Source: Gemmatimonadaceae bacterium
GTDB taxonomy: Bacteria; Gemmatimonadota; Gemmatimonadetes; Gemmatimonadales; Gemmatimonadaceae
Reading direction: 5' to 3'
Length of the DNA: 16,479 nucleotides
NCBI GenBank assembly: GCA_040901985.1
Contig: JBBDYC010000008.1
Span: 1 to 16,479 of the forward strand
Positions 1,335 to 16,479 of the stretch are shown in pieces; within the stretch, counting starts at the first letter, position 1, and every line of letters begins with the position of its first letter. Position numbers and translations under genes: made by a program. Under the pieces are notes generated by a model, which worked only from the letters and a program-made list of their open reading frames with translations, searched no databases and was not told the DNA's origin.

Positions 1335-4300
1335 TCAGCGAGGAGATGAAGCGGGAGCCGAGCCGGCGTTCATCGCCTGCTCAGCCGCTGTCACGTGCGC
1401 GCCAAGCAGTTGCGATCGCATATCAGTCGCATCGCGCCCGGAGGCGTTCACCAGCCGCGCATAGAGCGTTCGCGCTCCCTGCACATCGCCTGATCGCAAG
1501 TGTGAAAGCACCGCGGCGTCGAAGAAGAGCCCAATCGGGAGCCACGCCCGCCCCTCGTTGCGCGCCTTCAGCAGCAGGTCGGTCTCGCGCGCCGCACCAC
1601 GCCAGTCGTACGTCACGGCGGCGCGCAGAAAACGCAGCGCCGCCCGTGCATCGTTCGGCGCGCGTTGCGCTTCCATATACCGCTCCACCCCGCGGTACCA
1701 CGCGCTGTCGGCAACGCCGATCGTCCCCTGATGCCGGTCGCGTTCGACCTGGACGACCTCGGCGAACCAAAGCGGCCAGTCCACCGGCGGACGCCCGCTC
1801 GCCAGCTCGAGCCGGAGTCGCTGGTCGCGGAGCCGTGCGCTCTGCAACCGGCGGCTTTCACTCGCGGTGTCGGTGAGCGCAACCACTTCGCCCGCGCGCA
1901 GGCGCGCCCCGACCGCCTGTGCGGTGAATCGGTTGTGGCTGAGCGCCGGCCGGGCGCTGCCAATCCAGCCGATCCGCCGTTCGCCGAGCGCGGCGGCCAG
2001 GTCGAAGCGCTCGATCGGCAGCATCGAAAAGCCGTGGGCCTCGCCGCGCAGGAAGCGCGCGCGCTCGGCGCCGAGGTCGAGGTGCGGGTAGAAGTCCGAG
2101 TTCACCTCGCCGCTGTCGCCGAGCAGCGGCTCGAGCTCGGCGCGCGTGACGAGCCGCGTGGCGTCGAGCACGGTGGCCGAGAGCGGACGGAACCGCTCGA
2201 GGTCGCGCGCCACGTCCGGCAGCGCCAGCACCGACCAATCCGGCCGCGGCAGGCGCTCGGCGTTGGACGCGACAATCAGTAGGTCCAGGTCGTTGGTGAG
2301 GAAGAGCTCGAACGACCGGAAGTTGCGCGCCAGCGCGCGCACCACGCCCAGCACGAGCCGATCTTCACTCTCATAGAGGTGGATCCACTGGCCGAAGACA
2401 CCGCCGGGCGTGAGATGTCGGGCGACCCGCGCGTAGAACTCGTCGGTGAAGAGCGCCGAGACGCCGCTCACCCACGGGTTTGACGGTTCGGAGAGGACGA
2501 GGTCGTAGCGCCGGCCGCCGGCGGCGAAGTGCGACTTGGCGTCGTCCACCACGAACGTTGAGCGCGGGTCGTCAAAGACGCGCACATTGGCCGGCATCAG
2601 GACGCGCGAGGCCTCGATCATCTCCGGCTCGATGTCAATCGTCTCGAGCCATTCCAGCGTCTCGCTGCCGAGCAGGAAGTGCGACGACATCCCCGAGCCG
2701 TGACCGATCACCGCGGCGTCGCGCGCCGCCGGCGCGTGGGCGAGCGTGATCAGCGCCAGGAGCACCTGGGTGGACTCGTCGCTCCGCAGCGCCTCGCGGG
2801 CGCCCTCGGGCGGCACTGCGTCGTACCAGATGCGGGTGACCGAGGCGTCGGGCTTGCCGTTGGTCGCGATGGTGAAGCCGCTGTCGCTGCCGAACTGGAC
2901 GCTTACCGTCGCGGTGCGCCCGTCGCGATAGTGGACGATTGTCCGCGCGCCGCGCGCCGGCACGGTGCCGTAGCGGAAGACGCCGCTGACGAGGATCCCC
3001 GGATCGAACGCCGGAGAGATCACCGCGCCGAGCACGACGAGGGCGCCGGCCGCCGCGGCGAGGCCGGTGGTGCGGCCGATCGCCGGCACGTCACGCGCGC
3101 GCAGGACGAGGATCGCGACGCCAATCGCGATGTCGAGCGCGCCGCCGATGATCAGCATCGCCCGCAGCCCGACCGCCGGCATCAGGACGAGCGCAGCGAG
3201 CGTGACGCCGACAATCGCGCCGAGCGTGTTCCACGCGTACACCGCCCCGATCGCGCGCTCGCCGTTGCCGGCGCCGAGCAACACCCGGGTGATCAACGGC
3301 AGCGTCATTCCCGCGCAGATCGTCGGCGGCAGCATCACCGCGAGCGCGATTCCATAGCGCGCGAGGCTGAAGAGCCGATACCCGCGGTCGTTCTCCTCCA
3401 CGGCGTCGAGGAGCGCCGCCATCCAGTGGAAGGCGTCCAGGTACACGGCGAGCGTCAGGATCGCGAGCATCCCCATCGCCAGTTGCACGATCCCAAGCAG
3501 GCGCACGGGGTCGTCCACCCGGTCGGCGTATCGCCCGATCCACCAGGCGCCGATCGCGAGGCCGAGGATGAAGGCGGAAAGCATCAGCTCGAACGAGTGC
3601 GTCGCGCTCCCGAGCACGAGCGAGAGCATCCGGATCCAGGCAATCTCATAGATGAACGACGCCACCGCGGTGCCGAAGCCGACGGCGAGGAGGAGTCGCC
3701 AGTGCGCGGCCGCGTATGCCGTGCCGGAGTCGGGGAGGGGCGCGGACGCACCCGGCAGCGCGGCGCCGTCCTGGAGATCCTCCTCCACGTCGTCCCGCTC
3801 CATTCGTACGAGGCCGAAGGTCGCCAGCGCGACGAACAGGTTGAGTGTCGCCGCCACGAGGAGCGTTCCCGGGAGCCCAACGAGCCTGATCAGCCAGAAG
3901 CCGGCGACGAGCACGCCGGCTGCGGCGCCGAGCGAGTTGGCGAAGTAGAGCAACCCGAGCGTCCGGCCGCTGGCGGCGCACTGCGCGTCGGCGTCGCCGA
4001 GGCGGCGGAGCACACCGGCGGCGAGGAGCGGGAACGTCGCGCCGAGGAGGACCGAGGGCGGGAGGATCAGAAGCGCGGCGAGCGACCATTTGGCAACGAG
4101 CAGCAGCGTGCCGCCGGCGAGCGCCGGAAAGAGCGTGTCGTACGCGAACGCGCTCGCCACGCCGAAGATGGCGTGGAACGCGAGGCCGAAGAGGCCGACG
4201 AGCGCCTCCACGCCGGCGTACCAGAGCAGTGGCTCGCGCACCCGGCGCGACAGGCGCGCGGTCAGCGCCGCCCCGGCGGACATCCCGCCGAGGAAGATGA

Positions 4301-4427
4301 CAAGGACGATGACCTGGGCGTAGGCGCTGTGGCCGACGAGGAGTCCGAGATAGCGACTCCAGATGGACTCGTAGATGAGTCCGGCCGCCCCGGAGAGGAC
4401 GAAGAGAAAGGCGAGCGCGAGGGTCAC
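1335..4427 (-). CDS. Fused MFS-like membrane domain / spermidine synthase-like (SAM-binding fold) protein with C-terminal helical extension
   Basis: Multi-TM N-terminal half with an internal duplication (LIYESIWSRYLGLLVGHS vs FIYEIAWIRMLSLVLGSA). Class I methyltransferase-type motifs VIGHGSGMS, IDIEPEM, VDDAK, YDLVLSEPSNPW, LFTDEFY, LTPGGVFGQW. GTG start; 1030 aa. Confidence 0.9.
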   Translation of the reverse strand: MTLALAFLFVLSGAAGLIYESIWSRYLGLLVGHSAYAQVIVLVIFLGGMSAGAALTARLSRRVREPLLWYAGVEALVGLFGLAFHAIFGVASAFAYDTLFPALAGGTLLLVAKWSLAALLILPPSVLLGATFPLLAAGVLRRLGDADAQCAASGRTLGLLYFANSLGAAAGVLVAGFWLIRLVGLPGTLLVAATLNLFVALATFGLVRMERDDVEEDLQDGAALPGASAPLPDSGTAYAAAHWRLLLAVGFGTAVASFIYEIAWIRMLSLVLGSATHSFELMLSAFILGLAIGAWWIGRYADRVDDPVRLLGIVQLAMGMLAILTLAVYLDAFHWMAALLDAVEENDRGYRLFSLARYGIALAVMLPPTICAGMTLPLITRVLLGAGNGERAIGAVYAWNTLGAIVGVTLAALVLMPAVGLRAMLIIGGALDIAIGVAILVLRARDVPAIGRTTGLAAAAGALVVLGAVISPAFDPGILVSGVFRYGTVPARGARTIVHYRDGRTATVSVQFGSDSGFTIATNGKPDASVTRIWYDAVPPEGAREALRSDESTQVLLALITLAHAPAARDAAVIGHGSGMSSHFLLGSETLEWLETIDIEPEMIEASRVLMPANVRVFDDPRSTFVVDDAKSHFAAGGRRYDLVLSEPSNPWVSGVSALFTDEFYARVARHLTPGGVFGQWIHLYESEDRLVLGVVRALARNFRSFELFLTNDLDLLIVASNAERLPRPDWSVLALPDVARDLERFRPLSATVLDATRLVTRAELEPLLGDSGEVNSDFYPHLDLGAERARFLRGEAHGFSMLPIERFDLAAALGERRIGWIGSARPALSHNRFTAQAVGARLRAGEVVALTDTASESRRLQSARLRDQRLRLELASGRPPVDWPLWFAEVVQVERDRHQGTIGVADSAWYRGVERYMEAQRAPNDARAALRFLRAAVTYDWRGAARETDLLLKARNEGRAWLPIGLFFDAAVLSHLRSGDVQGARTLYARLVNASGRDATDMRSQLLGAHVTAAEQAMNAGSAPASSPR

Positions 4428-7471: not shown

Positions 7472-8011
7472 CTAGCGGCGCGCGAGCCTTTCCACGAAGA
7501 CCTTCCGCGCCTTTGACACCTTTGGCGCGACGACCACGGCGCAATACGGGTTCTGGGGATTCCGCGCGAAATAGTTGTCGTGCGCGCGCTCGGCAGGCCA
7601 GAACTTCTCCAGCGGCACGACCTCGGTGACGATCGGGTCGTCCCAGTGCGCCTGTGCGGCGGCCAGTCGCTCCGCGGCAGTCCGGGCCTGCTCGTCCGAG
7701 TGCGTGAAGATCACCGAGCGGTACTGCGGCCCCACGTCGTTCCCCTGACGGTCCTTGGTGGTCGGGTCGTGGATCGTGAAGAGCACGTCGAGCAGGTCGC
7801 CATAGCCGATCTCGGCCGGGTCAAAGCTGATCTGCACCACCTCGGCGTGACCGGTCTTCTTTCCGCAGACCTGCTCGTACGTCGGGTTGGCGACGTGGCC
7901 GCCGGCGTAGCCGCTCTTCACGCCCGTCACGCCGCGCAGCTCGAGGTACACCGCCTCGAGACACCAGAAGCACCCGCCGCCGAGCGTGGCGAGTTCGGTG
8001 CCGCCGCTCAC
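7472..8011 (-). CDS. msrA: Peptide-methionine (S)-S-oxide reductase MsrA
   Basis: GGGCFWC active site, [33 protein letters not shown]-terminal NPYC. GTG overlaps the msrB stop (GTGA). Confidence 0.97.
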
Positions 8012-8475
8012 TTGGCGTCCTCCTGCACAATCGTCGGGAAAAGCACGGCGTACTTTCCCAACCCCTCGGCCGTCAGCCGTGCGGCGGGGACGAACCGCAA
8101 TGCCGCCGAGTTGATGCAGAAGCGCAGCCCGCCGGGGCCCGGTCCGTCCTCGAAGACGTGGCCGAGATGCGAGTCACCCTGCGCCGAGCGCACCTCCACA
8201 CGGCGCATCCCGTACGCGTGGTCCGGGTGTTCGGCGACGTTCTCGTCCACGAGCGGCTTGGTGAAGGACGGCCATCCCGTGCCCGAGTCGAACTTGTCGG
8301 TCGAGGCAAAAAGCGGCTCGCCGGACACGACGTCCACGTAGATGCCGGGCTCCTTGTGATCCCAGAACTCGTTGCGGAACGCGGGCTCGGTGGCACTGCA
8401 CTGCGTGACCTGGTACTGCAGCGGCGTGAGGCGTTGCTCGAGCGCCGGGTCGGCGGGCTTCTTCTGCTTTGACAT
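8008..8475 (-). CDS. msrB: Peptide-methionine (R)-S-oxide reductase MsrB, zinc-free type
   Basis: Start reassigned to ATG 8475 (155 aa). [31 protein letters not shown]. No CxxC zinc motifs (VDVVS and RSAQGD instead). Confidence 0.96.
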
Positions 8476-8536
8476 TTGCGTTTGGGCGTGGAGTACCTCC
8501 GAGGAATCGAGCCAGCGCCGCCCAAGTTCCGCAACC

Positions 8537-8565
8537 TTGACAATGCCGAACAAACACCGAACCAT
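8537..8565 (+). promoter_or_regulatory. Possible sigma-70 promoter for the efflux operon
   Basis: Perfect TTGACA (8537-8542), 17-bp spacer, weak -10 AACCAT (8560-8565). Confidence 0.3.
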
Positions 8566-8631
8566 TGCCGGCTCGGCGCGAAGATCGCTCCAGCGCTCAC
8601 CCTGAAACCACTGACGCGGGCCTTGCGTTGT

Positions 8632-8669
8632 AAGCAAGTGGTCGCTTGCTTTGTGAAAGTATTCACTTG
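8632..8669. promoter_or_regulatory. Tandem palindromic operator candidates for the TetR domain
   Basis: AAGCAAG-N6-CTTGCTT (8632-8651) and AAGT-N4-ACTT (8657-8668). The shared core AAGT-N4-(A/G)CTTG recurs 21 bp apart, ending 10 nt before ATG 8680. Confidence 0.7.
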
Positions 8670-8679
8670 AACCTCCCAT

Positions 8680-10671
8680 ATGTCTGAACCGACCAAGCAG
8701 CAGCTCCTCGACGCCGCCGCGCGCGTCTACGCCGAGGCCGGATTCCGCGGGGCGACGACGCGCCGCATCGCCGACGAGGCTGGCGTGAACGAGGTGACCC
8801 TCTTTCGCCTCTTCGGCTCCAAGGATGCGCTCATCAAGGAAGCCATCCGCGAGCACGCGCGTAGCGGTCCGCCCGACGTCCTACCGGATGTGCCGGTGGA
8901 TCCGGTCCGCGAACTCACGGCGTGGGCCGAACAGGACCACGTCTTCCTCACCGAGTGCCGCGGGATGATTCGCACGGCAATGGCCGAGATGCACGAGCGG
9001 CCGGAGTGCGCCGGGTCCACCGCCGAGCAGCCCGCCGAGTCCATGCGCGCGCTCACCACCTACATCGAGCGACTGGCCGAGCACCGCTTCATCCCTTCGG
9101 CAGCGGACGCAAACGCCGCGGCCGCGATGCTGAAGGGCACGCTCTTTGCCGACGCAATGGGCCGCGACATGATGCCTGACTTGTTCCCGCCGGCGAAACG
9201 CGCGCCGGCGATCTACGTGCGCCTCTTCCTCCGTGCCCTCGGCGCCGCGTTGGCACTGCTCCTCCTGGTGCTGCCGCCCTCCGCCGTCGCGCAGGCGCAG
9301 ACTCCGTCGCAGGCGCAAGCGACGCCGACCGAGCTCTCGCTCGCCGAGGCGCTGCGGATCGCCGAGCGCCGCAACGCCGGTGTGCGGATCGCCGAAGCCG
9401 GCGCCGCGCGCGCACGCGGGTACCAGCGCGCCGCCGACTCCGGGCGCTTGCCGCAGGTGAACGGGTCCATCAGCTATCAGCGCGCGATCGAAAGCCAGTT
9501 CGCCGCGATCTCCGAGCGCTTCGCGCCCGACACCGGCAGCTCCGGCGGCGGAATCGAGGACTCGCCGCTGGCGCAGATCTTCGCGGCGCCGAACACCGCC
9601 GTGTTCCAGCTTTCGGCGACGCAGCATCTCTGGACCGCCGGCCGACTCGGCGCTGCACGCGCCGGCGCCAGCGCCGGCCGCGACGCGGCCAACATCGCCC
9701 TCGCCTCGGCGCGCGCGCAGGCCATCCTCGACGTTGCCGCGGCTTACTTTGACGCGGTGGCGATGGAGCGTCTGCAGGCAATCGCCGATTCGACCGTCGC
9801 CCTCACCGAGCGCACCCTCGCCCACGTCGAGCTCGCGCGCGAGGTTGGCACGGCGAGCGAGTTCGACCTCCTGCGCGCCCGCGTGGCGCGCGACAACCAG
9901 CGCCCGCTCGCCATCCAGGCGCGCGGCAACCGCACGGCGGCGCTCCTCCGTCTCAAGCAGCTCCTCGAACTCCCGCTCTCGGCGCCGCTCACCCTTACCA
10001 CGCCGATCCGGGATGACGACGCGCTCGTCGCCGAGACGATGGGCCCGATCCGGCTCGTGGACGACCGCACGATCACGCCCGACACGAGCGTCGCGGCGCG
10101 CGCAACGGTTCGTCAGGCGGAGGCGCAGGTAGAGGCGCGGGAGGCCGCGTTGCGTGCGGCTCGCCTGGCGCGGTTCCCCTCGCTCCAGCTGACCTCGACC
10201 TACCAACGCTTCGCCTATCCGCCCGACGGCACGTTCCTCCCCGGCGAGCTTGGCCTCTACTTCCCGAACTGGACGGTGTCGCTCGGCCTCGCCTTTCCCG
10301 TCTTCAGCGGCGGCCGCGTCAGCGGCGAGCGGATGGTGGCGGAGGCGGATCTCCTCGAGGCGCGCTCGCGGTTGCAGCAGACGCGCGACGGCGCCGAGCT
10401 CGACGCCCTCCTCGCGGTCACGCAACTCGAACAGGCGCAGGCGGCGTACCTCGCTTCGGTCGGCACCGACGCCCAGGCCGAGCAGGCGTATCGCATTGCC
10501 GAGGTCCGCTTCCGCGAGGGAATCTCGACGCCGGTCGAGTTGACCGAGTCGCGCGTCCAGCTCGAACAGGCGCGGCTGCAGCGCGTCACCACGGCGCGCG
10601 ACCTCGAGATCGCGAAGCTCCGGCTCGCCCTCCTGAAGGACCTGCCGCTCGCGCCGGAAGGGGTCCGCTGA
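8680..10671 (+). CDS. TetR/AcrR-family regulator fused in frame to a TolC-family outer membrane efflux protein
   Basis: Residues 1-187: TetR ([43 protein letters not shown]). Residues 180-204: signal-peptide-like, ending AVA/Q. Residues 205-663: OEP repeats ([57 protein letters not shown]). No internal stop. Confidence 0.88.
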
Positions 10672-10734
10672 TGCGCTCGCCTGCCCGCGCGCTGACGCGC
10701 GCGCCACGTCTCGCCGCGTCGTCCACTGATTGCT

Positions 10735-10770
10735 CGACCGTTCCGACCGTTCCGACCGTTCCGACCGTTC
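10735..10770 (+). repeat. Tandem repeat (CGACCGTTC)x4
   Basis: Four exact 9-bp copies between the TolC stop and the likely adaptor start. Confidence 0.95.
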
Positions 10771-10805
10771 CACCCCCTACGCCCAAGTCCCGAGGGAAGC
10801 TCCCG

Positions 10806-11936
10806 ATGTCGTCTCGCATTGTTCGTTCCGCCGGTCTCGCCTCCCTCGCGTTCACGCTCTCGATTGCCGCCTGCGGTCGCGGTGACGCTGCCGAGGATGC
10901 CGCGGCGGCGGCGGCCCCGGTGGTTGTCGCTGTCGGTCCGGAGGCGATCACCGTCGCCGAGGTCACGACGCTCGCGACTGGGCCGATCCTCTCGGGCACC
11001 TTGGTGGCCGAGCGGACGGCGCAGATCCGCGCCGAAGTGCCGGGCTCGGTCATCCAGGTCTTCCGGGACCCAGGGGCGGTGGTCGCGCGCGGCACCTCGC
11101 TCGCCAAGATTGACGACCGGTCCATCAACGACGGCTACCTCTCGGCGCGCTCCGGCTACACCGCGGCCGAGACGTCGGCCGACATTGCCCGGCGCGAGCT
11201 CGAGCGGGCCGAGAAGCTGCAGGCGGCCGGCGCGATCTCCGACCGCGACCTCGAGAACGCGCGACGCGCGAACCTCGCCGCCGGCTCGATGCTCGACGAC
11301 GCCCGCGCGCGGCTCTCGTCGGCGCAGAAGCAACTCGACGCGACCAACGTGCTGGCGCCGTACGACGGAGTCGTCAGCGAGCGCTACGTGAACCCGGGAG
11401 ACGTGGTCGCGCCGGGCTCGCCGCTCTTCACGGTGGTGGACCCGGCGACGATGCGGCTCGAGGCGACGGTGCCGGCGAGCGAGCTCGCGGCAATCCGCGT
11501 CGGCGCGCCGGTCCGCTTCTCGGTGACCGGCTATCCGGGGCGGACATTCGAGGGCCGCATCTCGAGCATCAACCCGTCAGCCGACCCGCAGACGCGGCAG
11601 GTGCGGCTCTTCGTCCGCATCCCAAACGCGGGGAACAGCCTGGTCGCCGGCCTCTTCGCCGAGGGACGCGTGGCAAGCGACGCCCGCGCGACGCTCACCG
11701 TGCCGCGGCTGGCGGTGGACCTCCGCGGGCTCACGCCGGTGGTGCTCCGCGTGCGCAACGGCACCACCGAGCGCGTAGAGGTTGTCCTTGGCGCGCAGGA
11801 CGAGGCCAGTGAGCGCGTGGAGATCACTGCCGGCATCGTGGCGGGCGACACGCTGCTCGTCGGCGCGGCGCTCGGCATCACGGCCGGCACCCCAATCCGC
11901 GTGAGCGCGCCGGCCGACGTGCCGGCGCGCAACTGA
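10806..11936 (+). CDS. RND efflux periplasmic adaptor subunit (MFP), lipoprotein
   Basis: ATG 10806 follows GAGGGAAG; lipobox IAAC; IRAEVPGSV, GAISDRDLE, APYDGVVSER..NPGDVV, GRISSINPSADPQTR; 376 aa. An alternative in-frame ATG lies at 10671. Confidence 0.92.
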   Translation: MSSRIVRSAGLASLAFTLSIAACGRGDAAEDAAAAAAPVVVAVGPEAITVAEVTTLATGPILSGTLVAERTAQIRAEVPGSVIQVFRDPGAVVARGTSLAKIDDRSINDGYLSARSGYTAAETSADIARRELERAEKLQAAGAISDRDLENARRANLAAGSMLDDARARLSSAQKQLDATNVLAPYDGVVSERYVNPGDVVAPGSPLFTVVDPATMRLEATVPASELAAIRVGAPVRFSVTGYPGRTFEGRISSINPSADPQTRQVRLFVRIPNAGNSLVAGLFAEGRVASDARATLTVPRLAVDLRGLTPVVLRVRNGTTERVEVVLGAQDEASERVEITAGIVAGDTLLVGAALGITAGTPIRVSAPADVPARN

Positions 11937-11951: not shown

Positions 11952-14900
11952 GTGTTCATCTCTGACTTTGCGATCAAGCGGCCGCTGATCACCGTCGTCT
12001 CGATGGTGGCGCTCGTCGTCTTCGGACTGTTCGCGCTCTTCCAGCTCGAGACCGATGAGTTCCCCGACGTGCAGCAGCCGATCATCAACGTGGCGATCCC
12101 CTATCCCGGCGCGTCGCCTGACGTCGTCGAGCGCGAGGTGCTCGACCGCGTCGAGGAGGCGGTCTCCGGCATCTCCGGTGTGGACCGGATCTCCGGCTCG
12201 GCGATGGACGGCTTTGCCAACGTGACGGTCTTTTTCGTCTTCGAGAAGGACCTGCAGCAGGCGTCGCAGGACATCCGCGACAAGATCTCGTCCATCCGCT
12301 CGGACCTGCCGCTGGAGATGAAGGAGCCGGTGCTGACGCGGTTCGACCCGGCGGACCAGCCGATCGTGCAGCTCTCGCTCAACTCCAATACGCTCGACGC
12401 ACCGGCACTGACGCGGATCGCCGACCCCGGCGTGACGCGCGTGCTGCGCGGGATCGCCGGCGTGGCCGAGGCGACGGTGGTCGGCGGTGTCGAGCGCGAG
12501 CTCACGGTGGAGATCCGCCCCGACGCGATGGAGGCGGCGGGCGTGACGGTGGCGCAGATCGTCGGCGCGCTGCAGTCGCAGAACCTCGCCGTCCCGGTTG
12601 GGCGGCTGGCCGGCACGCTCGACGAACGGGCCATCCGGCTGAAGGGCAAGCTCGAGACGCCGGAGGACTTCCTCCGCCTCGTGGTGGCCGAGCGGGGCGG
12701 CCGCGCGATCCGCCTTGGCGAGGTGGCCACCGCGCGCGACGGCACCGCCGAGCCGCGCACCGCGGCGCTCTTCAACGGGCGCGACGCGGTCGGCATCATG
12801 ATCAAGAAGTCGAAGGGGTACTCGACGACCGCGGTGGCCGAGCAGGTCCTCGCGGCGATTGACGAGCTGCGGCCGACGCTGCCGCCGGGCACGCAGCTCG
12901 ACGTCGTGCAGAACGCCGGCGACCGCGTGAAGGCCTCGGTGGCCAACGTGCAGAGCGCACTGGTCGAGGGCGCGCTGCTCACGGTGCTCGTCGTCTTCAT
13001 CTTCCTCAACTCGTGGCGCTCGACTGTCATCACCGGGCTCGCGCTCCCGATCTCGGTGCTCGCCTCCTTCATCGCCGTCTGGGTCTTCGGCTTCACGCTG
13101 AACACGATGTCGTTGCTCGGCCTCTCGCTGGCGATCGGCATCCTGATTGACGACGCGATCGTCGTGCGCGAGAACATCGTGCGGCACGTCGAGATGGGGA
13201 AGGACCACTTTCGCGCGGCGCACGAGGGAACCGACGAGATCGGGCTCGCGGTCACCGCGACGACCTTCTCGATTGTCGCCGTCTTCGTGCCGATCGCGTT
13301 CATGTACGGGTTGTCCGGCCAGTGGTTCAAGCCGTTCGCGCTGACGATTGCCTGCGCGGTGCTCGTCTCACTGTTCGTCTCGTTCTCGCTCGACCCGATG
13401 CTCTCAGCCTACTGGCCGGACCCCGAACTCGAGGAGGGCGAGCGTCGGAGCTGGATCTCGCGCAAGCTGACGGTCTTCAACCAGTGGTTTGACCGCCAGG
13501 CAAACAACTACACGCGGGTGATCGGGTGGGCGCTCGACCACCGGCTGGCGATGGCGGTGCTCGCGGTCGGGAGCCTCGTCGGCGCGCTCTGGCTGCAGGC
13601 GACGTTTGGTGGGTTCGGGTTCGTCCCGATCTCCGACAACTCCGAGTTGGTGGTCCAGGTGGAGACGCCGCCCGGGTCGAATCTCGAGTACACCCGACTG
13701 AAGACGGAGGAGGCGGCGCGCCTCGCCCGCGCGCACCCTGAGGTGCGGTACACGTTCACCACAATCGGCGCCGGACAGGGGATGGATCCCTCGGAGGCGC
13801 TCGGCGCGGTGGACCTCGGCTCGGTCTACGTGCGGATGACGCCGAAGGCGACGCGCTCGATCTCGCAGGACCGCCTGGGCGCAATCCTGCGGAACGACGT
13901 CCGCCAGATCGGCGGCGCCACGGTCGCCGTCTTCACGTCGGGCTTCGGCGGCGCAATCAAGCAGGTGCAGCTCGAGCTCCGCGGGCACGATGCGCGCCAG
14001 CTGCAGGAGGTGGCAGACTCCGTCCTCGGCCGGATGCGCGGGATCACCGGGGCGGTGGACCTCTCGCTCTCGACCAAGGGGCAGAAGCCCGAGCTTGAGA
14101 TCACGCTCAACCGCGCGCTGGCCGGCGCGCTCGGCGTGACCGTCGGGCAGATCGCGCAGTCGCTCCGCCCGGCGTTCGCCGGCGTGGACGCCGGCGACTG
14201 GGTGGACCCGAGCGGCGAGAACCGGAAGGTGCGCGTGCGGCTCGCGCCGGAGGCGCGCACGCGGGTGCAGGACATCGAGCGGCTGCCGATTGCGGTCGGC
14301 GGCCAGGGCGGGCCGGTGCGGATGATGCCGCTCGGCCAGCTGGCGACGGTGTCGCAGGGCCTCGGCCCCGCGAAGATCAGCCACCTCGACCGCGACAACG
14401 TGATCGTCGTCCAGGCGAATGTGTCGGGGCGGTCGCTTGGCGAGGTCACCAGCGACATCGAGCGCGAACTCGACACGATGACCATTCCGGCCGGGATCCG
14501 CTGGTCGTTCGGCGGCGAGGCGCGCGACCAGGCGCAGGTCTTCGGCGACATCCTCGCCGCGCTCGGGATCGCGCTCCTCCTGATGTACCTGATCCTCGTG
14601 ATGCAGTTCGGCTCGTTCCTCGAGCCGATCGCAATCCTCGTGTCGTTGCCGCTCTCGCTGATCGGCGTGGTGCTGGCGTTGCTGGTCACCGGCGATACGC
14701 TCAACATCATGTCAATGATCGGCGTGATCCTCCTGATGGGGATCGTCGCCAAGAACGCCATCCTGCTCATTGACTTCGCGAAGTGGGGCCAGGAGCAGGG
14801 AATGCCAAGGCGCGAGGCGATCATCGAGGCGGGCCGCGTGCGGCTGCGGCCGATCCTGATGACCACCTTCGCGCTGATCGCCGGGATGACGCCGGTGGCG

Positions 14901-15107
14901 CTCGGCGTCGGCGAGGGCGCCGACTTCCGGGCGCCGCTCGGCCGAGCGATCATCGGCGGCACGCTCACCTCGACACTGCTGACCCTCCTCGTGATCCCGA
15001 CGGTCTACGAGGTGATGGACGAGTTCCGCGAGCGCATCGCGCGGCTCTTCAACTTCCCGGTGCGGCCGAAGACCGAGGAGTACGCGGTGCCGACGAAGCC
15101 GGGCTGA
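11952..15107 (+). CDS. RND efflux permease, AcrB/AcrD/AcrF (HAE1) family
   Basis: MFISDFAIKRP start after CAGGAG; TM4 GILIDDAIVVRENI; TM10 GIVAKNAILLIDF; RLRPILMTT. Proton-relay residues intact; 1051 aa. Confidence 0.97.
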   Translation: MFISDFAIKRPLITVVSMVALVVFGLFALFQLETDEFPDVQQPIINVAIPYPGASPDVVEREVLDRVEEAVSGISGVDRISGSAMDGFANVTVFFVFEKDLQQASQDIRDKISSIRSDLPLEMKEPVLTRFDPADQPIVQLSLNSNTLDAPALTRIADPGVTRVLRGIAGVAEATVVGGVERELTVEIRPDAMEAAGVTVAQIVGALQSQNLAVPVGRLAGTLDERAIRLKGKLETPEDFLRLVVAERGGRAIRLGEVATARDGTAEPRTAALFNGRDAVGIMIKKSKGYSTTAVAEQVLAAIDELRPTLPPGTQLDVVQNAGDRVKASVANVQSALVEGALLTVLVVFIFLNSWRSTVITGLALPISVLASFIAVWVFGFTLNTMSLLGLSLAIGILIDDAIVVRENIVRHVEMGKDHFRAAHEGTDEIGLAVTATTFSIVAVFVPIAFMYGLSGQWFKPFALTIACAVLVSLFVSFSLDPMLSAYWPDPELEEGERRSWISRKLTVFNQWFDRQANNYTRVIGWALDHRLAMAVLAVGSLVGALWLQATFGGFGFVPISDNSELVVQVETPPGSNLEYTRLKTEEAARLARAHPEVRYTFTTIGAGQGMDPSEALGAVDLGSVYVRMTPKATRSISQDRLGAILRNDVRQIGGATVAVFTSGFGGAIKQVQLELRGHDARQLQEVADSVLGRMRGITGAVDLSLSTKGQKPELEITLNRALAGALGVTVGQIAQSLRPAFAGVDAGDWVDPSGENRKVRVRLAPEARTRVQDIERLPIAVGGQGGPVRMMPLGQLATVSQGLGPAKISHLDRDNVIVVQANVSGRSLGEVTSDIERELDTMTIPAGIRWSFGGEARDQAQVFGDILAALGIALLLMYLILVMQFGSFLEPIAILVSLPLSLIGVVLALLVTGDTLNIMSMIGVILLMGIVAKNAILLIDFAKWGQEQGMPRREAIIEAGRVRLRPILMTTFALIAGMTPVALGVGEGADFRAPLGRAIIGGTLTSTLLTLLVIPTVYEVMDEFRERIARLFNFPVRPKTEEYAVPTKPG

Positions 15108-15641
15108 TCAGGGTCCGGCGATCGGCCTCGGGAAGCGCCGGGGCCGGTGCTCGTCGAGCCAGGCCCGCTGCGCGTCGGTGAGGACGGCGCGGAGCGCGTC
15201 GTGCAGTTCCTTGAGCGCCGGACGCAGGGCCACGGCGATCTCACGCCCCTGCTCGAGGATGGCCCGCACCTCCTCTCGCGTCGCGCCGGACTGCCGGGCC
15301 GTGCGCGCCGCCTGGAAGATCTCGCGGAGTGCATCGAGTTCCTCCTCGTGTTCGGCGCGGAAGGCCGTGCGCAGCTCGGCGATCGCGGCGCGCTGCTCGT
15401 CGGTCAGCGCCAGTTCCTCGGGGAGCGGCGGCCGGCCGGTACGGCCGTCGAACGGCCGGGAATCCGCCTGCGTGCCCATCGTGCCTTCGAGCGCGGTGCC
15501 GGTCTCGCCGAACATCGCCAACGCGTAGTCGTCGGCGACAACGGCGCTCGCCTGGGTCCCGGCGGACGGGAGGTCGCACGCCGTCAGCACGACGAGGGCG
15601 GCAAGGGCGGCGAGCGCGGGGGTGACGGTCCTTCTCAGCAT
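15108..15641 (-). CDS. Spy/CpxP-family (LTXXQ motif) lipoprotein
   Basis: ATG 15641 with a GGAGG RBS; lipobox LTAC; LTDEQR and LTDAQR flank a helical region; 177 aa. Confidence 0.82.
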   Translation of the reverse strand: MLRRTVTPALAALAALVVLTACDLPSAGTQASAVVADDYALAMFGETGTALEGTMGTQADSRPFDGRTGRPPLPEELALTDEQRAAIAELRTAFRAEHEEELDALREIFQAARTARQSGATREEVRAILEQGREIAVALRPALKELHDALRAVLTDAQRAWLDEHRPRRFPRPIAGP

Positions 15642-15756
15642 ATCGGGTTGCCTCCAGTGGCCAGGGGCCGTTGGTCGCGCGGCAGAATGGGAGCCGGCGC
15701 GGTTATGCCCGTTTGATGCCCGCTGCGGCCCGATGTTAATCCGACCCCCAAGTCCA

Positions 15757-16479
15757 TCAATCCGCCGCCGCGCGGAGCAGCCGCCACGCCGCCGCCAGAT
15801 GCGACTCCTGGGTCCGCAGGTTCCCGATGGCGACCCGAAGCACGTACGCCTCACCAAGCTTGGTGTGCGAAAGGAAGACCGCGCCGTCGGCGTTCACGCG
15901 GTCGAGAATGCGGGCGTTGTGCGCCGCGAGTTCCGTCTCGTCGGTCACTCCCGGCGGCCGATGGCGAAAACAGACCACCGACATCCCGACCGGCGCGACG
16001 ACTTCCCACCCCGGCGCGTCGGCGACCCACGCCGCAAAGGTCGTGGCGAGCGCGCAATGGTGCCGGATGCGCAGCGCCAGCCCGTCAATCCCGAACGCGC
16101 GCAGCACGAACCAGAGCTTGAGGGCCCGGAACCGGCGCCCGAGCTGGAACGAGTAGTCGGAATAGGAGAGCGCCACCTCCTGCTCGCGCGTCTCGAGGTA
16201 GGTGGGCGTGAGCGCAAAGGCGCGGCGCAGGACCTCGGGATGCCGGGTCCAGAGCACCGAGCAGTCCATCGGCGTGAAGAGCCACTTGTGGGGATTGACG
16301 ACCATCGAATCGGCGCGCTCGATTCCCGCGAACTCGGCGCGGCGCTCGGGGAGGAGCGCGAGGACGCCGCCGTACGCCGCGTCGGCGTGCAGCCAGAGTC
16401 CCTCGCGCTCGCAGATCGGCGCGATCTCGCCGATCGGGTCCATCGCCGTGGACGAGGTCGTGCCGAGCGTGGCGACGAC
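15757..16479 (-). CDS. Group II PLP-dependent decarboxylase (aromatic-L-amino-acid decarboxylase family), 5' end outside the window
   Basis: VVATLGTTSSTAMDP, WLHADAAYGG, PLP lysine motif NPHKWL, LGRRFRALKLW, VVCFR. The frame is open to the window end. Confidence 0.94.
   Translation of the reverse strand, partial: VVATLGTTSSTAMDPIGEIAPICEREGLWLHADAAYGGVLALLPERRAEFAGIERADSMVVNPHKWLFTPMDCSVLWTRHPEVLRRAFALTPTYLETREQEVALSYSDYSFQLGRRFRALKLWFVLRAFGIDGLALRIRHHCALATTFAAWVADAPGWEVVAPVGMSVVCFRHRPPGVTDETELAAHNARILDRVNADGAVFLSHTKLGEAYVLRVAIGNLRTQESHLAAAWRLLRAAAD

Follow-up and report, generated by a model that had tools for sequence, protein, structure and literature searches.

How can a bacterium draw from one gene both a transcriptional repressor of the cytoplasm and a channel of the outer membrane? 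Bacteria are not known to make a cytoplasmic regulator and an outer-membrane protein from one chain. The question is raised by a single open frame on the forward strand of the window, by which we mean the whole 16,479-nucleotide stretch of Gemmatimonadaceae DNA analysed here (contig JBBDYC010000008.1). The product of this frame, 663 amino acids and 71.3 kDa, joins a TetR-family repressor, a signal peptide and a TolC channel (Table 1). The reading that we prefer, at a probability of roughly 0.6, is that the gene yields one precursor which is cut by signal peptidase I (SPase I) and likely trimmed by RseP, and that a nested start at V180 is used as an option besides. Throughout, g1 denotes the window's genus, while g62 and g19 are other genera with which it was compared.

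Table 1. Features of the fused gene and its surroundings (positions in the window; residues and codons are those of the 663-aa product).
Feature	Positions	Strand	Basis
ECF-sigma-like promoter motif (presumed), GAAAC-N17-CGTT, directly 5' of the operator	8604..8629	+	pattern match
Palindromic operator-like site, GCAAG-N6-CTTGC, predicted TetR binding site	8634..8649	.	sequence
Second operator-like site, degenerate, 2 mismatches	8655..8670	.	pattern match
Fused ORF, TetR - signal peptide - TolC	8680..10671	+	ORF, Pfam, AF2 + Foldseek
TetR-family repressor, residues 1-188; HTH 9-55; last helix 175-188 in predicted dimer interface	8680..9243	+	
In-frame fallback starts: ATG 9169, ATG 9172 (M164/M165), TTG 9181 (codon 168)	9169..9183	+	
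8-bp G+C hairpin just upstream of GTG 9217	9188..9210	+	MFE -19.3 vs -13.7 expected, z -1.5
V180 codon GTG: candidate nested start, from which a canonical signal peptide of 25-27 aa would be read	9217..9219	+	codon/folding signature
Signal peptide h- and c-region, residues 189-206; predicted SPase I cut after A204 (9291) or A206 (9297)	9244..9297	+	pattern, hydrophobicity
Mature TolC/OMF channel, 459 aa, residues 205-663	9292..10671	+	Pfam, AF2/Foldseek
Periplasmic adaptor (MFP), separate gene, ATG 10806	10806..11936	+	TIGR01730, 210 bits, cut-off 94.9
RND permease, separate gene	11952..15107	+	ACR_tran, 860 bits

The original prediction, which was made from the letters of the DNA, had described a TetR, a signal peptide and a TolC in one frame, with the last TetR helix running stop-free into a 459-residue TolC, and frame, domains and predicted structure all bear this out. 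On translation, the end of TetR (residues 179-188) continues without a stop into a signal-peptide-like segment at 189-204/206, and a stop codon of TetR's own before TolC is absent from the window's frame and from the fused relatives that were translated. Pfam places TetR_N (PF00440) at residues 9-55 (E 3.6e-14; 52.7 bits against a cut-off of 24) and finds two OEP stretches in the C-terminal part (E 1.9e-43). An AF2 model built with a 97-row alignment (mean pLDDT 89.5; a model from the single sequence reached 46 and was not used) consists of a TetR domain and a TolC protomer, with a continuous helix over residues 175-197 followed by a disordered stretch at 198-210. The Foldseek matches of this model are TolC and OprM on the one side and the TetR-family proteins MexL and NalC on the other, and the two OEP repeats together with the alpha/beta barrel protomer fold are the OMF features of the TolC half. 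For the repressor half, the model and these matches predict an all-helical ligand domain that pairs through its last two helices. TetR dimers are textbook, and a homodimer was predicted for residues 1-206 as well, with a score of 0.76 against 0.00 for the best control, contacts 91% alike between runs and pLDDT of at least 82; the mark set for this score is reached by 20 of 30 solved pairs and by 1 of 23 single chains. The predicted interface covers residues 143-191 and thus includes 175-191, and the prediction shows likeness to solved TetR dimers. Conservation among the best 120 of 268 long homologues is 0.89 in the HTH, 0.80 in TolC and 0.63 in the h/c region, and judged by sequence and model both halves look functional.

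The alternatives that the original prediction had kept for such a frame, an assembly artefact or a strain-specific deletion, are excluded by the fused relatives and by an assembled read set. A Logan contig of run X1 spans positions 8400-11000, and with them the stretch 9200-9300 at the joint, in one piece at depth 26 and with 0 differences; X1 is possibly the source of the window's DNA, so it is not independent. A domain search on homologues of the TetR part (the class of 364-1161 aa, named Gemmatimonadaceae or Gemmatimonadota) returned TetR_N plus OEP in 120 of 120 among the matches listed, of 268. Within g1, a deep genus of 57-75% identity, 52 of 55 genomes have the gene, which is fused in 49, cut by contig ends in 3 and split in 0, so that none of the 49 uncut copies has a stop or a frameshift between the domains. 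All counts of fused and split loci come from direct translation, because a long predicted frame is an unreliable sign of fusion: 13 of 20 long-frame loci turned out to be split when they were translated. Among 74 GTDB loci, the 14 closest comprise 12 fused and 2 cut ones and the other 60 are split, and a tree of TetR plus TolC, built from 21 fused and 54 split sequences, sets all the fused ones on one side of a branch with SH-aLRT 100. Two loci of g1, L195 and L200, have the TolC frame broken further downstream, by assembly error or decay. Sister to the g1 fusions stand two unfused TetRs of 195 aa, known from protein records (P0157 and P0158), that end in YVRLFLRSIGAA(I/V)PALT; this places the joint of the fusion near residue 190. 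The fusion is also carried by a cultured organism, Pseudogemmatithrix spongiicola (DSM 109487; strain deposits are given in PMC11271474), as the 666-aa protein WP_367886339.1, which is annotated just as a 'TolC family protein'.

The g1 gene has counterparts elsewhere. In a family-wide search sample of 301 loci, of which only the 20 long-frame loci were read and which was not itself counted, 7 of those 20 are fused, with differing junctions; nothing concluded here depends on the unpublished genomes G326, G114, G087 and G212. Of 30 genomes of g62, 27 have a match, fused in 14 and split in 13; the four g19 genomes hold 3 fused orthologues and 1 split one; and a profile of the split TetRs brought up more fusion types, Longimicrobiales included. 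On an 84-row tree (38 fused, 46 split), whose rows were picked to cover lineages and which comes from a quick search with some long branches, the fusion label needs 9 changes, at least 7 of them forced by well-supported branches. A single origin is rejected on a 67-row set, both for all fusions (p-AU 2e-5) and for g1 plus g62 (p-AU 2e-12). By this phylogenetic evidence, orthologous tetR-tolC pairs have been fused repeatedly and independently across Gemmatimonadota. Two kinds of junction occur: a compact one, in which the h-region follows directly after the last TetR helix (g1, P0276/8, P0279-88, P0290), and a spaced one, in which the basic tail of TetR serves as the n-region (g62, g19, P0273-7). 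One further TetR, not orthologous to these, has likewise been joined to a TolC (P0355), and most of the family remains split.

If the long chain is to serve as a precursor, it needs a targeting signal and a cleavage site in its middle. The signal peptide was assigned by pattern and hydrophobicity. All 120 listed homologues (of 268) have a small residue followed by Q past the h-region; Ala is at -1 in 119, and the site lies 24-27 residues beyond V180 in 107 of the 120; since the search pattern demanded A, G or S and then Q, what is informative here is presence, spacing and the preference for Ala. A lipobox cysteine is absent from segment 189-206 and from the listed homologues, so the protein is no lipoprotein. 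The hydrophobicity of the h-region (best 11 residues) is higher in fused genes than in their split relatives in 8 of 9 lineage pairs (2.79 against 2.35 in g1), one pair being reversed and several having n=1, and more hydrophobic h-regions are expected for an internal targeting signal. The genome has an RseP gene and two SPase I genes. It also has four other OEP genes, as would suit a chain that stays uncleaved in the inner membrane as a sensor while another TolC serves the pump; we find this scarcely credible in view of the cleavage-like site in all 120 homologues listed, the conservation of the TolC half at 0.80 with its full fold, and the operon order, which is kept.

The harder matter is where translation begins. 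The original prediction had named ATG 9169, ATG 9172 and GTG 9217 as internal starts without an obvious ribosomal binding site; they are in frame, as are ATG 9157 and TTG 9181, and such a site is indeed missing, but as an argument against internal initiation this fails. An SD-like 4-mer precedes about 30% of 1309 high-confidence starts in the genome, against 10% of internal codons (the genome's start model is a rough EM fit, partly contaminated by internal codons, which served for SD frequency and second-codon usage only), the start of TetR itself has no SD-like site, and Table 1 of a survey (PMC10783764) gives an SD use of 22% for Gemmatimonadetes. A missing site says little because SD use is low in genome and phylum alike. 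The Met codons are no guide: codon 168 is TTG in the window and ATG in 44 of 50 relatives, and M165 is ATG in 34 of 35 fused loci, while M164 and M165 are invariant in 99 split TetRs as well and M168 is present in the unfused sister TetRs P0157 and P0158. Since split and unfused TetRs share these residues, their conservation is no evidence for a start, and M168 was dropped as a fusion-specific one.

The valine codon at 180 is a different case. In a g1 codon set of 50 non-redundant fused loci (from 66), codon 180 is GTG in 44, the highest share of 15 Val columns, of which others reach 0.74-0.83, so that GTG retention by itself is a modest signal. The codon that follows, 181, is CGA in 39 of 50, against at most 0.27 in 38 other Arg columns. 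Split genes with Val at 180 use GTG in 15 of 33 cases, and GTG CGA occurs in 0 of 18 split V-R pairs, although one split locus beyond that set, L203, does have it. In this genome, second codons favour CGA and AGA: the two make up 50 of 171 Arg codons there, versus 5% after internal start-like codons. More broadly, 5 of the 7 most A/T-rich among 241 four-fold columns sit in codons 160-183, which hold 10 such columns (nominal P 8e-7); the loci are kin, so tests of this kind overstate. Four-fold sites are near saturation (0.52 versus 0.41 random), and in simulations the A of CGA is retained neutrally in fewer than 1 in 3000 runs at the mean rate and with probability 0.28 at rate 0.2, the corresponding values for the G of GTG being 0.001 and 0.66. 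Should these two positions simply evolve very slowly, GTG and CGA would thus likely be retained without selection.

The folding of the mRNA points to the same codon. At codon 180 it is 6.4 kcal/mol weaker than under synonymous resampling, the maximum of the gene and of a size that resembles its 5' end, against a background of -0.7 +/- 1.25 with a maximum of 2.4. Fused genes average +5.6 at this codon (29 of 35 above zero) versus -0.4 in split genes (29 of 58). From the codons and the folding together we infer the signature expected of an SD-less start. GTG180 has been lost in 6 of the 50 g1 loci, on several branches, with fused frame and signal peptide kept, and the open context follows it (mean z 1.6 in the 44 loci with GTG, 0.0 in the 6 without); one of these, L186, lacks GTG180 but carries an ATG at 178, two codons upstream, and its context is still open. 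The signature is missing from 13 loci in a set that was defined after the data had been seen, and the window is one of them. Its own mRNA is predicted to form a hairpin that would close GTG 9217, and its codon 181 is CGC, not CGA. Codons 165-168 stay open both in this closed set and in the window (about +3.5 and +4.5). In g62, 7 of 14 fused genes have no ATG, GTG or TTG between the MMP motif and the h-region, the remaining 7 share no start, and an open-structure signature at the junction is found in none of the g62 fused genes; the precursor route must therefore work in the start-less ones, unless translation begins at the invariant MM, 40 codons further upstream. In other fusion types, Met is missing from the stretch between MP motif and h-region in 6 of the 8 inspected, GTG and TTG being invisible in proteins.

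Many members of g1 thus likely also make a plain pre-TolC from V180, and as far as the sequences of these lineages tell, an internal start is not obligatory. The nested initiation that the original prediction had listed as an alternative gains from the fusion-specific signature in most of g1 and loses in the window gene and in g62, where that signature is missing. Its stronger form, that functional TolC comes solely from V180 or M164/M165 while the long product delivers TetR and has its TolC half degraded in cytoplasm or periplasm, could draw on the strength of the V180 signature, on the openness of codons 165-168 in the closed set and the window, and on the ATG of M165 in 34 of 35 fused genes. 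We consider it improbable, since the 7 g62 genes with no nearby start codon or open structure, the 6 other fusion types without a Met before the h-region, and the raised hydrophobicity in 8 of 9 pairs all speak against it.

The converse is a strict polyprotein, in which the halves are made 1:1, TetR is permanently tethered to the membrane, and the codon bias near V180 stems from another cause such as pausing, RNA binding or a cleavage site. The occlusion of the window's GTG, the 6 of 50 loci without GTG180, a compact junction that may block RseP and the more hydrophobic h-regions would all suit it; yet the bias is centred on a GTG that opens a textbook signal peptide and has the size of the gene's 5' end, it decays along with GTG (z 1.6 versus 0.0), and L186, which lost GTG180 but has ATG at 178, remains open in context. 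We regard this strict form as unlikely. Of the original claims, the polyprotein as such is supported (artefact and strain-specific deletion are excluded, motif and domains are conserved, and independent fusions often lack any internal start), whereas synthesis at 1:1 is doubtful in most of g1 because of the V180 signature and possible in the window gene, where that signature is missing.

Programmed frameshifting, of which CopA(Z) is an example, or early termination at the junction might instead free TetR, with TolC made by read-through. A rare CGA codon conserved at the junction would be in keeping with this; however, no conserved slippery heptamer was found at the junction, the first stops in the +1 and +2 frames past V180 are scattered over 0 to more than 400 codons, and the window has CGC rather than CGA, so that we judge it very improbable. 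A conserved +1-frame TGA at codon 164 was rejected as a frameshift stop: it is a by-product of the ATG ATG there, and split genes have it too.

Because no stop and no conserved frameshift frees TetR, all of it would be made as precursor. In the reading that we prefer, the fused gene would be translated as one chain, which Sec would insert with TetR inside. SPase I would then cut after A204 or A206, releasing TolC (49 kDa) for assembly in the outer membrane, and the 22-kDa TetR with its signal remnant would at first be held in the inner membrane. The topology of the long form, with cytosolic regulator, transmembrane segment (the internal signal-like segment) and exported domain in one chain by Pfam and AF2, is shared with RodZ-type proteins, whose internal transmembrane segment is targeted co-translationally according to PMC9360617. 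That RseP then clips and frees TetR is, by analogy, slightly favoured over a permanent tether because of two precedents: according to PMC9360617, signal peptides are broken down by RseP once they have been cleaved off, the one of E. coli TolC among them, and PMC4597795 describes how RseP cuts some, but not all, transmembrane segments that are preceded by a folded N-terminal MBP. The main doubt is the compact junction, where in the model the dimer helix ends about 16 residues before the cut site, which may make it harder for RseP to gain access or for TetR to dimerise at the membrane. In about three quarters of g1, initiation at V180 would add ordinary pre-TolC beyond 1:1, and the last TetR helix would be put to dual use, as dimer helix in the long form and as n-region of the signal peptide in the short one. 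In the window gene, where V180 looks closed, the precursor, or else a start at M164/M165, would be the main source of TolC.

The fused gene heads a tripartite operon in which the OMF, MFP and RND genes lie together; the RND permease scores under the cut-offs of every named RND equivalog. TolC and MFP are separate in 59 of 59 loci and MFP and RND in 53 of 53, a weak control because such fusions would be non-functional. Each of the 145 loci whose flank is long enough (49 fused, 96 split) has the palindrome GYAAG-N6-CTTRC within 120 nt upstream, compared with 2 of 423 control windows, and the strict operator pattern has 2 matches genome-wide. The motif GAAAC-N17-CGTT, a candidate promoter of ECF-sigma-like form, is present in a relaxed version upstream of 44 of the 50 fused loci and 13 of the 99 split ones, and a sigma-70 consensus has no match in 8450-9350, the interior of the TetR gene included. 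Two operator copies are found in 32 of 49 fused loci; split sister groups commonly have them too, with 2-3 copies, so extra operators were dropped as an adaptation to tethering.

These upstream regions bear on why the fusion exists, a matter compatible with the mechanism above. It could be a tolerated ratchet and not an adaptation: small deletions would join the basic TetR tail to the signal peptide, Sec would tolerate the product, and loss of the TolC start would lock it. Split TetRs do end in basic tails, the stop of tetR and the start of tolC overlap or abut, most of the family is split, and the double operators predate the fusion, so that no regulatory rewiring is seen upstream. Against a mere ratchet stand the at least 7 origins, the 0 split copies among 52 genomes of a genus as deep as 57-75% identity, the tuning of the h-region in 8 of 9 pairs and the non-orthologous fusion P0355. 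We give the ratchet even odds, and whether the fusion is adaptive is likewise about even.

No paper on a TetR-TolC fusion was found in the literature searched, which left subscription journals, InterPro architecture tables and bioRxiv supplements outside, in agreement with the original remark that no characterised example was known. Hepatitis C virus core-E1, processed by signal peptidase and then by signal peptide peptidase, is alike in joining a cytosolic nucleic-acid-binding protein to an exported one through an internal signal peptide with two cuts, but it belongs to a eukaryotic viral polyprotein and has no homology to the fusion. AcrR-type local TetR repressors of RND operons, as covered in PMC8277102, share the TetR fold, the upstream palindrome and the OMF-MFP-RND operon; here, by contrast, the repressor is co-directional, stop-less and in frame with the OMF, and such a fusion is absent from the portion of that source on which we draw. 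The hybrid sigma/anti-sigma protein IutY of Pseudomonas putida likewise has a cytosolic regulator and an exported domain in one chain, and its regulator is freed by RseP; in the account of PMC5411451, Prc destroys the periplasmic sensor part of IutY on signal, whereas here the exported part is a complete TolC channel that bears a signal-peptidase site, and each half is predicted to be a working product. The anti-sigma factor RsiV of Bacillus subtilis has its regulatory domain in the cytoplasm, and a cut by signal peptidase at an internal site behind that domain sets off intramembrane proteolysis; unlike what is proposed here, RsiV as described in PMC4183432 is destroyed, is ligand-gated, is separate from its sigma factor and releases no channel. 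The AyrR/AyrA secretion-stress circuit of Staphylococcus aureus, as presented in PMC5727409, links repression of a transporter operon to SPase activity through a relay of separate proteins, while the link here, if any, is covalent. ArcB-C, in the description of bioRxiv 10.1101/520783, resembles the V180 case in its short C-terminal isoform, conserved internal start and local synonymous constraint; here the short isoform is the ancestral downstream gene, with a signal peptide overprinted on the repressor's dimer helix. The fusion resembles IutY, RsiV, AyrR/AyrA, ArcB-C and HCV core-E1 and is a member of none, and what this analysis adds consists of a start signature overprinted on the repressor gene, the disappearance of that signature from sub-lineages, and the contrast of fused and split genes inside g62.

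The annotation 'TolC family protein' hides the regulator half of these genes. Fused and split sister lineages within g62, together with a cultured carrier, open three questions to experiment: what Sec and SPase I do with a signal peptide that follows a folded domain able to dimerise, whether RseP, in its housekeeping clearance of signal peptides, could bring a transcription factor to maturity, and whether such gene fusions are an adaptation or the product of a ratchet. Rather unlikely, yet worth stating, is the view that these genes form a class of bacterial polyproteins in which the repressor is in effect a pro-peptide of the channel that it controls, active only after Sec, SPase I and RseP have acted, with at least 7 origins and with an overprinted start that tunes the ratio of channel to repressor. 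If it were true, repression of the pump would be wired to export throughput: under export stress, free repressor would run short and the pump would be induced.

Upstream of the fused tetR-tolC gene, an ECF-sigma-like motif lies against the predicted TetR operator, and a relaxed form of this motif occurs at 44 of 50 fused loci, versus 13 of the 99 split loci, where tetR and tolC are separate genes. In many split loci its place is taken, as judged by eye, by a -35/-10 pair that ends 6-9 nt before the TetR ATG, and this spacing suggests that their mRNA may be leaderless. The strict operator pattern has a single further match in the genome (G000:C9:283708), possibly a second target or a chance occurrence.

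Features of the window around the efflux operon
Feature	Position	Strand	Remark
1030-aa membrane protein, MFS-like part and spermidine-synthase domain	1335-4427	-	
msrB and msrA genes	7472-8475	-	Divergent from efflux operon
ECF-sigma-like motif, GAAAC-N17-CGTT	8604-8629		Sequence pattern; directly adjoins operator
9-bp tandem repeat, CCGTTCCGA, three or more copies	10738-10770		Between TolC stop and MFP ATG 10806
LTXXQ (Spy/CpxP-like) protein	15108-15857	-	Convergent with RND gene

Between tolC and the adaptor gene (MFP) lies the only such tandem array in the genome, and a further ATG at 10671, in the MFP frame, overlaps the TolC stop. The msrB and msrA genes and the operon are separated by a common intergenic region, which also contains the operator. 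The LTXXQ protein probably starts at a later Met than the annotated-length ORF, and the 1030-aa protein belongs to a known fused type.

P0355 (725 aa) is a fusion in which a non-orthologous TetR precedes a TolC, with a basic tail and a signal peptide linking the two. Two fused genes, L195 (G015:C130) and L200 (G042:C76), have a TolC frame broken downstream (465 and 365 aa, respectively), which may reflect assembly error or decay. Among the split loci, L018, L019, L030, L033 and many soil loci carry a tolC start in the tetR frame, 3-15 nt past the tetR stop (TGA-NNN-GTG), and are one substitution short of a read-through fusion. Sister to the fusions of the window's genus stand two protein records of unfused, 195-aa TetRs (P0157 and P0158), which likely represent the pre-fusion state.
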